Source: an uncultured Methanosarcinales archaeon (GTDB lineage: Archaea; Nanobdellota; Nanobdellia; Woesearchaeales; 21-14-0-10-32-9). From it: a stretch of 54,079 bases of DNA. The stretch lies in contig CAZCTY010000003.1 of the NCBI GenBank assembly GCA_964501945.1, forward strand, positions 1-54,079, read 5' to 3'. The position numbers and the translations under genes are program-made. The notes under the pieces are model-generated. The model was not told where the DNA came from. It saw only the letters and a list, made by a program, of their open reading frames with translations, and did not search any database. Positions 10,977-12,439 of this stretch are shown here, piece by piece; within the stretch, counting starts at the first letter, position 1, and every line of letters begins with the position of its first letter.

Positions 10977-11450
10977 TTGAATTGTGATATTTGTGGTAAA
11001 AGTGGAGAATTATTTCACATAGAAATGGAATCTGCAAAACTAATAGCTTGCAATATGTGCGCAACACATGGAAAAAAAATAGGCAAAGTAAAAACTAATA
11101 CACCTGAACCTAAAGTAAAATACAAAGAAAAACAAACAAAAAAAGAAGAAGAACCAATAATACTCGTAGTAGATAATTATAACCAATTAATTAAGAAAAA
11201 AAGAGAAAAACTCGGATTAAAACAAGAAACACTAGCAAAACAACTAAATGAAAAAGAATCACTAATACAACAAATAGAGGCAAAAAAAGCAGAGCCAAGC
11301 ATTAAACTCGCAGAAAAACTTGAGAGAAAACTAAACATTACATTACTTGAAAAATACGAACCAAACCTTGTAACAAAAAAAGATTCTAAAGAAGATAAAA
11401 CAGTCACATTAGGCGATATGATACAAATAAAAACAAGAAAGAAAAAATGA
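10977..11450 (+). CDS. mbf1: Archaeal multiprotein bridging factor aMBF1 (Zn ribbon plus XRE HTH)
   Basis: CDICG...CNMC ribbon, KKREKLGLKQETLAKQLNEKESLIQQIE HTH, C-terminal TLGD motif. Confidence 0.9.
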   Translation: MNCDICGKSGELFHIEMESAKLIACNMCATHGKKIGKVKTNTPEPKVKYKEKQTKKEEEPIILVVDNYNQLIKKKREKLGLKQETLAKQLNEKESLIQQIEAKKAEPSIKLAEKLERKLNITLLEKYEPNLVTKKDSKEDKTVTLGDMIQIKTRKKK

Positions 11451-12439
11451 AAAGCATGCTAATAATTGGAAGATTCCAACCATTCCACTCAGGACACCTT
11501 TCTATAATAAAAAAATATTACAAAAAAAAATATTTCATAAAATTAATCATAGGATCAAGCCAAAAAGCACACCAAAAAAATAACCCCTTCACAAAAGATG
11601 AAAGAATAGATATGATAGAAAAAACATTCAAAGAACACAATATAAAAAACTACAAACTAATAACAATACCAGACACGAACTGCGATAGAGAATGGATGAG
11701 ACTTGTAAAACAAAAAGCAGAACCATTCGATGTACTATTTACAGGGAATCAATGGGTAAAAAAACTATTTAAAAAAGAAGATGTTGAAATACATGAATTT
11801 AATGAAAAATTTGAGAGAATAAAAGGAATAAAAGCAAAAGATATAAGAAAAACACTAACATCAATAAAAACAAAAAAAGGCCTCCCCCAAGCAGTATATA
11901 AACAATTAAAAGTAATAGGCGCATTTGACAGATTAAAAGACTTACACGACCAAAAGAAAAAAGTGCACTACTTACTTAGCGAAAACAACTTAACAATAAG
12001 CACAGCAGAGAGCTGCACAGGAGGCGCAATAAGCAGAGCACTAATAAGCTATACAGGCTCATCAAAATTCTTTACCGGAAGCATCATAGCATATAATACA
12101 AAAATAAAAACAAAACTTCTCAAAGTAAATAAAAAAACAATAGATACAAAAGGCGTTGTAAGCGAGGAGACAGCAATAGAGATGGCAAAAAGCGCAATAA
12201 ACACATTTAAAACAAATTACTCAATAAGCACCACAGGTTACGCAGACCCCTCAGATAAAAAATCAGGAAAAATATGGATAGCAATAGCAACAAAAAACAA
12301 AACAAAAACAAAAAAATTAAACTTCAAATACAAAGAGCGAAGCACAATAATTGATAAGACAACAAAAGAAGCAATACAAATGCTATATGCAATATTAAAA
12401 AAAGACTTACTTGAAATAGAACAAAATCTTGAAAAATAA
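11447..12439 (+). CDS. nadM: Fusion of NadM-type NMN/NaMN adenylyltransferase and PncC (CinA C-terminal) NMN deamidase
   Basis: N-half GRFQPFHSGH, IGSSQ...NPFT...ER, FTGN. C-half TAESCTGG, GSSKFF, YNTKIK, GVVSEETAIEMA, STTGYADP. Confidence 0.88.
   Translation: MKSMLIIGRFQPFHSGHLSIIKKYYKKKYFIKLIIGSSQKAHQKNNPFTKDERIDMIEKTFKEHNIKNYKLITIPDTNCDREWMRLVKQKAEPFDVLFTGNQWVKKLFKKEDVEIHEFNEKFERIKGIKAKDIRKTLTSIKTKKGLPQAVYKQLKVIGAFDRLKDLHDQKKKVHYLLSENNLTISTAESCTGGAISRALISYTGSSKFFTGSIIAYNTKIKTKLLKVNKKTIDTKGVVSEETAIEMAKSAINTFKTNYSISTTGYADPSDKKSGKIWIAIATKNKTKTKKLNFKYKERSTIIDKTTKEAIQMLYAILKKDLLEIEQNLEK

Follow-up and report, generated by a model that had tools for sequence, protein, structure and literature searches.

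The stretch of DNA considered here, referred to below as the window, comprises the 54,079 nucleotides at positions 1-54079 of contig CAZCTY010000003.1 from GCA_964501945.1, the assembled genome (hereafter G000) of an uncultured DPANN archaeon. On its forward strand lies a gene whose product unites two domains acting, in known enzymes, on nicotinamide mononucleotide (NMN): an adenylyltransferase of the NadM type and an amidohydrolase of the PncC type, the latter being the C-terminal domain of CinA proteins. We confirm the gene at 11447-12439 as genuine, and the best explanation of its sequence and genomic context appears to be that it encodes a two-domain salvage enzyme for nicotinamide adenine dinucleotide (NAD) in a genome-reduced, Woesearchaeota-labelled member of the DPANN archaea. 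The features on which the argument turns are the following, in window coordinates:

11447..12439, + strand: the whole NadM-PncC fusion gene, 330 amino acids (aa) plus stop (open reading frame (ORF) list, domain matches, AlphaFold2 model)
11456..11962, + strand: NadM-type adenylyltransferase domain for NMN or nicotinic acid mononucleotide (NaMN), residues 4-172 (PRK01153, 1F9A, Foldseek)
11471..11497, + strand: R9 and the GRFQPFHSGH/HxGH nucleotidyltransferase motif, residues 9-17 (invariance in fusions and NadM rows)
11831..11848, + strand: KAKDIR, a variant of SxTxxR, residues 129-134 (NadM alignment of 79 sequences)
11927..11986, + strand: inter-domain junction, residues 161-180, ...DLHDQKKKVHYLL... 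(conservation, AlphaFold2 model)
11954..12394, + strand: PncC/CinA C-terminal amidohydrolase domain, residues 170-316 (PF02464 at 157.8 bits; Foldseek match to 2A9S)
12005..12025, + strand: AESCTGG block with nucleophile Ser189 and oxyanion residue Cys190, aligning with E30-S31-C32-T33-G35 of Agrobacterium tumefaciens CinA (AtCinA)
12056..12109, + strand: phosphate-binding Gly204, Ser206 and Tyr216 with general base Lys221 (AtCinA G46, S48, Y58 and K63)
12233..12268, + strand: remodelled ribose-binding loop TTGYADPS----DKKSG with Asp267 (AtCinA G109) and a 4-residue deletion (PncC alignment)
12338..12340, + strand: Arg298, the invariant phosphate-binding Arg (AtCinA R145; alignment)

That NadM and PncC are combined in one polypeptide, as a preliminary description of the window had claimed, is borne out by a single ORF with zero internal stops across its 330 aa, hence none between the domains as assembled, and by Pfam and NCBIfam matches on both halves. 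The Pfam matches are CTP_transf_like over residues 6-116 and CinA (PF02464) over residues 170-316 (E = 2e-46), the latter against a cut-off of 23.5 bits and at the same coordinates in a genome-wide search. Among the NCBIfam models, residues 4-172 match the archaeal NMN adenylyltransferase (NMNAT) subfamily PRK01153 at 131.8 bits (cut-off 127), and the PncC half matches the PncC_domain model TIGR00199 at 122.9 bits (cut-off 68.9). Neither half attains any equivalog cut-off in the NCBIfam search: the NadM half scores 114.7 bits against TIGR01527 (cut-off 181.2), and the PncC half scores 88.2 bits against the nicotinamide-nucleotide amidase NF002975 (cut-off 212) and 86.1 bits against the 2-oxo-tetronate isomerase model (cut-off 201). 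The Pfam search returned no match to MoCF_biosynth (PF00994) or KH (PF18146), and models of the NadM-Nudix and NadR proteins match only the NMNAT part, at residues 4-93, with no Nudix, helix-turn-helix (HTH) or ribosylnicotinamide kinase domain.

The closest solved structures are the Methanocaldococcus jannaschii NMNAT MJ0541 (1F9A; E = 2.5e-26), the NMNAT of Methanothermobacter thermautotrophicus and the A. tumefaciens PncC (2A9S). An AlphaFold2 model built from 33 fusion sequences has a mean predicted local distance difference test score (pLDDT) of 87.2 and a predicted template modelling score (pTM) of 0.60, values that indicate confidently folded individual domains of uncertain mutual orientation. 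Archaeal NMNATs form hexamers, and in PncC dimers the partner subunit contributes Ser206 to the active site, so a defined assembly of higher order would be expected for the fusion. In Foldseek comparisons the N-terminal half of the model has the Rossmann-like NMNAT fold of 1HYB, 1M8J and 1F9A (probability 1.00; template modelling score normalised to the target, TM(target), 0.72-0.78, with about 0.77 for 1HYB and 1M8J), and the C-terminal half matches 2A9S with a TM(target) of 0.85 and a root mean square deviation of 1.6 Å. The junction is modelled as two nearly continuous helices (residues 148-166 and 169-179), and it is the best-conserved stretch of the protein: mean pairwise identity within the DPANN clade is 72% at the junction, 59% in the NadM half and 55% in the PncC half. 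These values argue for one protein selected as a whole rather than a chimeric assembly.

The motifs quoted in the preliminary description were all recovered, namely HSGH at residues 14-17, KAKDIR at 129-134, AESCTGG at 187-193, and YNTKIK with Lys221. In the NadM half, which aligns end to end with archaeal NadM (MJ0541, 1F9A; M. thermautotrophicus 1EJ2 and 1HYB) and shares its fold, the GxFxPxHxGH motif and the preceding Arg are present as GRFQPFHSGH (residues 8-17), and R9, H14, G16 and H17 are invariant in the 33 fusions and in every NadM row aligned. Mutant structures have been deposited for the M. thermautotrophicus counterparts of R9, H14, H17 and R134, namely 1M8F, 1M8G and 1M8K for R11, H16 and H19, and 1M8J for R136. 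The SxTxxR motif had been described as altered, and the alteration is real, both its Ser and its Thr being Lys in the fusion (K129 and K131), but it does not amount to a defect: the Arg, R134, is invariant in 79 of 79 NadM sequences compared, and position 129 is itself S, N or A in ten standalone NadMs from the same order. Judged from this alignment, KAKDIR falls inside natural NadM variation, and the Ser and Thr of SxTxxR are a soft feature. Thr occupies position 131 in 33 of 37 plain standalone NadMs versus 8 of 33 full-length fusions, with Lys or Arg common to the DPANN, Thermoplasmatota and Methanobacteriota-labelled fusions; this loss of Thr is a trend of possible meaning, in which related sequences are not independent observations. 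The active site of the NadM half thus looks intact by its residues, and the fusion differs from the known archaeal enzymes, which stand alone at about 170 aa, in these two Lys substitutions and in the appended PncC domain.

For the PncC half, the A. tumefaciens CinA offers a detailed reference: its 17 most-conserved positions have been listed, the S31A, K63A and R145A variants are inactive, Y58 and S48 bind the phosphate, and the backbone amides of A108 and G109 contact the ribose hydroxyls (PMC5384747). Aligned to 2A9S, the C-terminal half retains 16 of these 17 positions (E188, S189, C190, T191, G193, G204, S206, Y216, K221, M246, T263, G264, A266, P268, G274 and R298), the sole change being G109 to D267. 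The Ser/Lys dyad and oxyanion residues S189, K221, C190 and G264 are the equivalents of AtCinA S31, K63, C32 and G106, so that the claimed retention of AESCTGG and the catalytic Lys holds; across all 86 PncC rows the AESCTGG block does not vary, nor do Y216 and K221, and the 5'-phosphate binders S206, Y216 and R298 are likewise present and invariant. The YdeJ-type paralogs 5KOL, 6L19 and 5V01 have Phe at the Y216 position and lack R298. As both residues are present in the fusion, its C-terminal half would be of the NMN-deamidase type, and a YdeJ/OtnI 2-oxo-tetronate isomerase identity, considered as a candidate, is ruled out. The site looks intact, with a predicted complete NMN-deamidase catalytic and phosphate-binding set, and at the sequence level the catalytic residues of neither half have decayed, which bears on the possibility that one domain is inactive.

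The one altered signature position lies in the loop that contacts ribose, where AtCinA A108-G109-P110 has become A266-D267-P268 and four residues have been deleted. All 31 DPANN fusions combine Asp at 267 with the deletion, against 1 of the 55 remaining PncC domains compared (other fusions, adjacent-gene forms and bacterial CinA), 54 of which have Gly; by this count the combination is a marker of the DPANN fusion clade. It could signal a changed job for PncC in this clade, with the domain acting on some other mononucleotide that bears a carboxamide, such as a damaged or non-canonical NMN analogue from which NadM would otherwise build a faulty dinucleotide, or serving mainly as an NMN-binding regulatory domain for NadM. 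The shortfall against the NMN amidase equivalog (88 versus 212 bits) points the same way. However, the catalytic Ser and Lys, the oxyanion residues and the phosphate-binding residues are all invariant, which argues that the half is no pseudo-enzyme and that its substrate would still be a 5'-phosphorylated carboxamide, and Asp267 could simply hydrogen-bond the same ribose hydroxyls. We consider such a change of role distinctly unlikely.

The fusion is not peculiar to G000. Two protein collections were searched, one of 5.8 billion clustered proteins and, separately, one of 1.84 billion representatives at 50% identity, the latter exhaustively. The first yielded about 30 clusters with both Pfam domains at 47-70% identity to the fusion plus one at 35%, and the second at least five two-domain clusters (P0023, P0122, P0123, P0124 and P0138). 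The names under which the databases hold the NadM-PncC clusters reflect one domain only, a warning for annotation, and one cluster is labelled Woesearchaeota. Among 401 sampled genomes of the window's order, six have a CinA domain, and in four of these it belongs to a fusion of 323-330 aa: G000, its congeners G326 and G360, and G198 of another family. The proteins P0011 and P0014 are encoded exactly by G326 and G360. With about 30 clusters, four DPANN genomes and the further archaeal lineages described below, the domain-architecture check suggested by the preliminary description establishes the architecture as rare but recurrent. The best 80 viral loci contained no two-domain match. An approximately 145-aa nucleotidyltransferase of the congeners G031 and G390 was considered as a substitute for the fusion and rejected, being a generic RfaE/TagD-like cytidylyltransferase that G198 possesses alongside the fusion.

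The gene neighbourhood is also shared among the congeners. In G000, G326 and G360 a common upstream block runs through a presenilin-type peptidase, a lipoprotein, MinD/ParA and MBF1 to the fusion, the last neighbour being:

10977..11450, + strand: MBF1-type Zn-ribbon/HTH gene (HTH_3 match), upstream of the fusion

Its stop overlaps the fusion start by 4 bp (ATGA), and the order MBF1 then fusion is kept in G326 and G360. Relative to the congeners G031 and G390 the gene order is permuted, so a clean gene insertion cannot be told from a deletion there. Downstream of the fusion the window has two overlapping forward-strand ORFs of 168 and 154 aa (12484-12990 and 12971-13435) with no Pfam match; the pair is conserved and adjacent also in G031 and G390, and the first of them in G326, in all three genomes at another position relative to MinD. 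The window as a whole (1-54079) is low in G+C (31-41%); its AT skew is strongly positive (+0.2 to +0.4) along the greater part of the sequence, and its GC skew is negative throughout; the AT skew fits Lys-rich (AAA) genes lying mainly on the + strand.

What such an enzyme could do depends on the rest of NAD metabolism in its genome. Curated family models, backed by control searches that detect reference genomes, were applied to the G000 assembly (1.02 Mb in 53 contigs, 97.4% complete, 0.14% contamination). The only CTP_transf_like gene of this genome is the fusion, which is also its only CinA gene, and the NadM half is the only predicted enzyme found in it that would be able to form a pyridine dinucleotide. 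A hidden Markov model (HMM) search for the NAD synthetase NadE found none, the best match being 14 bits, and a tblastn search of G000 with a same-order NadE query likewise returned nothing (best E = 3.5); the control search detects NadE in 14 of 14 reference genomes. No NAPRTase-family PncB/NadV, PncA, PnuC, NadC or LigA was found in G000 with the curated models. The NAD kinase NadK is present, as are four Nudix proteins, none of which attains the cut-off of NudC or any other equivalog. The proposal that the organism scavenges NAD precursors accords with this inventory, in which no de novo or other salvage genes were found; the suggested genome check for nadE and transporters, for its part, turned up neither nadE nor PnuC.

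The other three DPANN carriers (G326, G360 and G198) are also metagenome-assembled genomes (MAGs), with completeness values of 100%, 92% and 93% among them. NadE was found neither in them nor in five further genomes of family f1, and NAPRTase and NadC were not found in the three carriers. The deamidated branch thus has no recognisable exit in G000 or its fellow carriers. The channel from NMN through NaMN and nicotinic acid adenine dinucleotide (NaAD) to NAD envisaged in the preliminary description, with the proviso that it needs NadE, fails on that proviso in G000 by both HMM and tblastn, as it does in four of four DPANN carriers, and the alternative idea of a switch between amidated and deamidated routes falls with it, as NadE was not found and one productive route only is left.

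The weak 14-bit match lies inside a 714-aa protein on contig C26, which we rejected as a NadE substitute: it is a fusion of class-II glutamine amidotransferase (GATase), asparagine-synthase PP-loop and Dph6-type diphthamide-synthase domains that is also present in non-carriers such as G031. Genes for this unusual three-domain amidotransferase of 707-719 aa (G000 contig C26, L001:253-2397, - strand; G031:C2, L190:3837-5960; G198:C2) are kept across family f1 and G198, and their presence does not track the NadM-PncC fusion.

Since all carriers are MAGs, and G000 is in 53 contigs, one might suspect that the fusion or the missing NadE stems from mis-assembly or mis-binning of metagenome contigs. 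Yet four genomes assembled independently of one another and about 30 metagenomic clusters share this ORF, with junction and synteny conserved, and NadE is missing from all four carriers at 92-100% completeness, although the control search that missed it there detects it in the 14 references and in 55 same-order genomes. An artefact of this kind is scarcely credible.

The order as a whole provides the background against which this absence is to be read. Strong NadE matches (E <= 1e-20) occur in 55 of 151 sampled genomes, and nadE directly adjoins a standalone nadM in at least 18 genomes. Among 74 NadM-positive genomes about 46 have NadE and about 28 do not (these order-wide counts include three unpublished genomes, G112, G121 and G132, on which no conclusion rests). 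NadM without NadE is therefore common in the order, and in such genomes only the step from NMN to NAD would yield NAD. One of them, the 100% complete G106, has a NadM that nests inside the fusion clade; its extension was considered as a PncC remnant and rejected, the extra residues being N-terminal. The opposite arrangement is seen in G077, where a 418-aa protein (G077:C66, L279:250-1503, - strand) fuses NadE to NadM (NAD_synthase at residues 7-250, CTP_transf_like at 267-395). Archaeal NadM has been reported as bifunctional towards NMN and NaMN, use of NMN constituting a route independent of NAD synthetase, with synthetase-less organisms as rare exceptions (PMC3376133), and cultivated nanohaloarchaea are reported to retain just an NMNAT (PMC10266531). 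About half of the sampled genomes of the order, for example G031 and G160, are without any NadM, and G031, a 100%-complete congener, has neither NadM, PncC nor NadE; archaea of the order without NadM must import NAD itself or use an unknown route.

From the architecture, motif conservation, fold, distribution and gene content set out above, the probable activities, substrates and direction of flux may be sketched as follows. The cell would scavenge NMN or regenerate it from NAD breakdown, and the NadM half would convert NMN and ATP directly into NAD and pyrophosphate (PPi), by the same NAD-synthetase-independent route as in NadM-only relatives. The PncC half, presumed active, would hydrolyse the carboxamide group of NMN, or that of a mononucleotide closely resembling it, in a side branch that drains or controls the NMN pool; NaMN formed in this way, and any NaAD made from it, would have no recognisable route to NAD in G000. 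We give this reading, direct synthesis of NAD by NadM with PncC draining or controlling the NMN pool, an even chance of being correct.

Several considerations weigh against it. It looks uneconomical for a deamidase to take NMN away from NadM and turn it into a product that leads nowhere, yet none of the 31 DPANN sequences departs from the catalytic residues, so that an important element of the logic would seem to be missing. No source of NMN or transporter was identified in G000, where PnuC is absent and no Nudix protein is of the NudC type. Because every carrier genome is a MAG, the case for NadE being absent is strong without being absolute. A preference of the NadM half for NMN over NaMN cannot be read from its residues, the model (pTM 0.60) leaves the inter-domain geometry uncertain, and the activities of all members of the fusion family are predictions from sequence.

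The NMNAT reaction is reversible, and this is the sole ground for supposing that the fusion might instead be a catabolic module in which NadM runs backwards on host NAD (NAD and PPi to NMN and ATP), with the deamidase making the step irreversible and ATP being gained. Such a module would account for an NMN-consuming partner in a genome with neither NadE nor a precursor-producing gene. It would, however, consume an essential cofactor that the cell has no other means of making; enzymes that would take NaMN further were not found, the presence of NadK points to NAD being used anabolically, and to our knowledge a catabolic NMNAT-deamidase module is without precedent; we regard it as very improbable.

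A different case for the deamidated route comes from outside the DPANN archaea. A scan of species-representative genomes found at least four non-DPANN MAGs with single-ORF fusions of 320-341 aa at 31-37% identity (L022-L025), labelled Methanobacteriota or Thermoplasmatota/Thermoplasmata, and at least five adjacent, co-directional nadM/pncC pairs (L095, L099, L103, L163 and L168) in Methanobacteriota and Bathyarchaeia MAGs and three metagenome contigs. Repeated fusion together with adjacent gene pairs supports a functional coupling of NadM and PncC in archaea, as far as gene organisation can indicate it. The four non-DPANN fusion genomes have NadC in four of four cases, NadE in three of four and NAPRTase in none of four. 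The channel unsupported in the DPANN carriers is thus plausible in these archaea: NadC would supply NaMN, PncC would turn recycled NMN into NaMN, NadM would make NaAD and NadE would finish, so that in NadC/NadE archaea the fused or adjacent pairing plausibly returns recycled NMN to the trunk from NaMN through NaAD to NAD.

Could the same channel be complete in the DPANN carriers, with PncC converting NMN into NaMN, NadM making NaAD, and the final amidation performed by an unrecognised enzyme other than NadE, or by the host? The gene content of the non-DPANN carriers fits this, and within the order NadM usually lies beside NadE and is even fused to it in G077, which suggests that NaMN is accepted by the NadMs of the order; a deamidase site so strictly conserved further argues for a useful product. 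On the other hand, NadE is found in none of the four DPANN carriers and in none of seven other family f1 genomes searched, the sole PP-loop candidate is the GATase/Asn-synthase/Dph6 protein shared with non-carriers, and no non-orthologous NAD synthetase is known in the literature (PMC3376133). A complete channel in these genomes is possible, though unlikely. The particular proposition that the NadE-less DPANN carriers make NAD from NMN via NaMN and NaAD by an NAD-synthetase activity that does not belong to the NadE family and resides in an unrecognised enzyme or in the fusion itself, for instance in its Ser-amidohydrolase half acting on an activated nicotinate intermediate, strikes us as improbable.

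The origins of the fusion were traced with trees of both halves, obtained by 'quick' searches and with tested groups that had partly been inspected beforehand. In the PncC-domain tree the DPANN fusions form one clade (Shimodaira-Hasegawa-like approximate likelihood ratio test (SH-aLRT) 96) that nests, with an SH-aLRT of 95, with short single-domain PncCs and CinA C-domains of the Bacteroidota type; it is to Bacteroidota CinA C-domains that the DPANN PncC half is most similar, at 40-48% identity. Elsewhere in the tree lie the remaining fusions and the adjacent-gene forms, in weakly supported groups, and a single fusion clade is not rejected for this half by the approximately unbiased (AU) test (p-AU 0.32). 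The NadM tree places the DPANN fusions (SH-aLRT 99) apart from the other fusions, with standalone forms interspersed, and an exclusive clade of all fusions is rejected by the AU test (p 6e-21). A looser arrangement, in which the DPANN and other-archaeal NadMs stand together against ten standalone NadMs of the same order, one of these being the G132 NadM (L017, from an unpublished genome), is not rejected (p 0.66). The junctions fall into three groups differing in length and sequence, namely those of the DPANN fusions, of P0030 and L022, and of L023-L025. Because the exclusive NadM fusion clade is rejected and three junction types exist, it is likely, although not proven, that an archaeal nadM-pncC pairing became fused independently two or three times.

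Set beside previously characterised systems, the fusion combines familiar parts in an unfamiliar manner. Like single-domain PncC (A. tumefaciens CinA 2A9S; Escherichia coli PncC/YgaD) it has the fold, the Ser/Lys dyad, the oxyanion residues and the phosphate-binding Ser, Tyr and Arg, but the domain stands behind NadM, its ribose loop is remodelled, and its genome is without NadD or NadE, whereas bacterial PncC has been placed ahead of the Preiss-Handler steps leading to NAD (PMC3855486). The two-domain CinA proteins (COG1058/MocF ADP-ribose pyrophosphatase, KH and PncC; Thermus thermophilus 4CT8) are likewise bifunctional NAD-recycling proteins with a C-terminal PncC, but their N-terminal partner is the MocF pyrophosphatase, where the fusion has an adenylyltransferase and no KH. 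The NadM-Nudix proteins (Synechocystis 2QJO; Francisella tularensis 2QJT and 2R5W) and NadR also join a NadM-type NMNAT to a second NAD-related activity (PMC3680494); there the second activity is that of an ADP-ribose pyrophosphatase or, together with an HTH, of a ribosylnicotinamide kinase, whereas the fusion has an amidohydrolase for the very substrate of its NMNAT. Of the same order and NadM family are the NadE-NadM fusion of G077 and the nadE-nadM operons, in which NadM is again tied to the deamidated route; there, however, the partner finishes that route (NaAD to NAD), whereas PncC would start it (NMN to NaMN) in genomes unable to finish it.

Full-text searches found literature on single-domain PncC, COG1058-PncC, N-terminal extensions, unanalysed 'occasional other fusions', NadM-Nudix and NadR, and none describing NadM-PncC. 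The published partners thus differ, as the preliminary description had held, and NadM-PncC is a new domain architecture of known enzymes. The representative search also brought up P0166 (338 aa), in which a NadM-type adenylyltransferase is joined to a DUF488 domain, another undescribed fusion partner of NadM.

Taken together, the pairing of NadM with PncC emerges as a recurrent archaeal theme, seen both in neighbouring genes and in fusions of at least two or three types. In the DPANN clade it is found in ultra-small genomes where the fusion constitutes the entire recognisable NAD-forming machinery and NAD synthetase is missing. It therefore offers a cheap and well-defined test case for how NAD is acquired and managed in minimal-genome symbiotic archaea, and for whether a deamidase may serve beyond the NadE-dependent route, be it in control of the NMN pool, in the clean-up of NMN analogues or in an as yet unknown amidation step.

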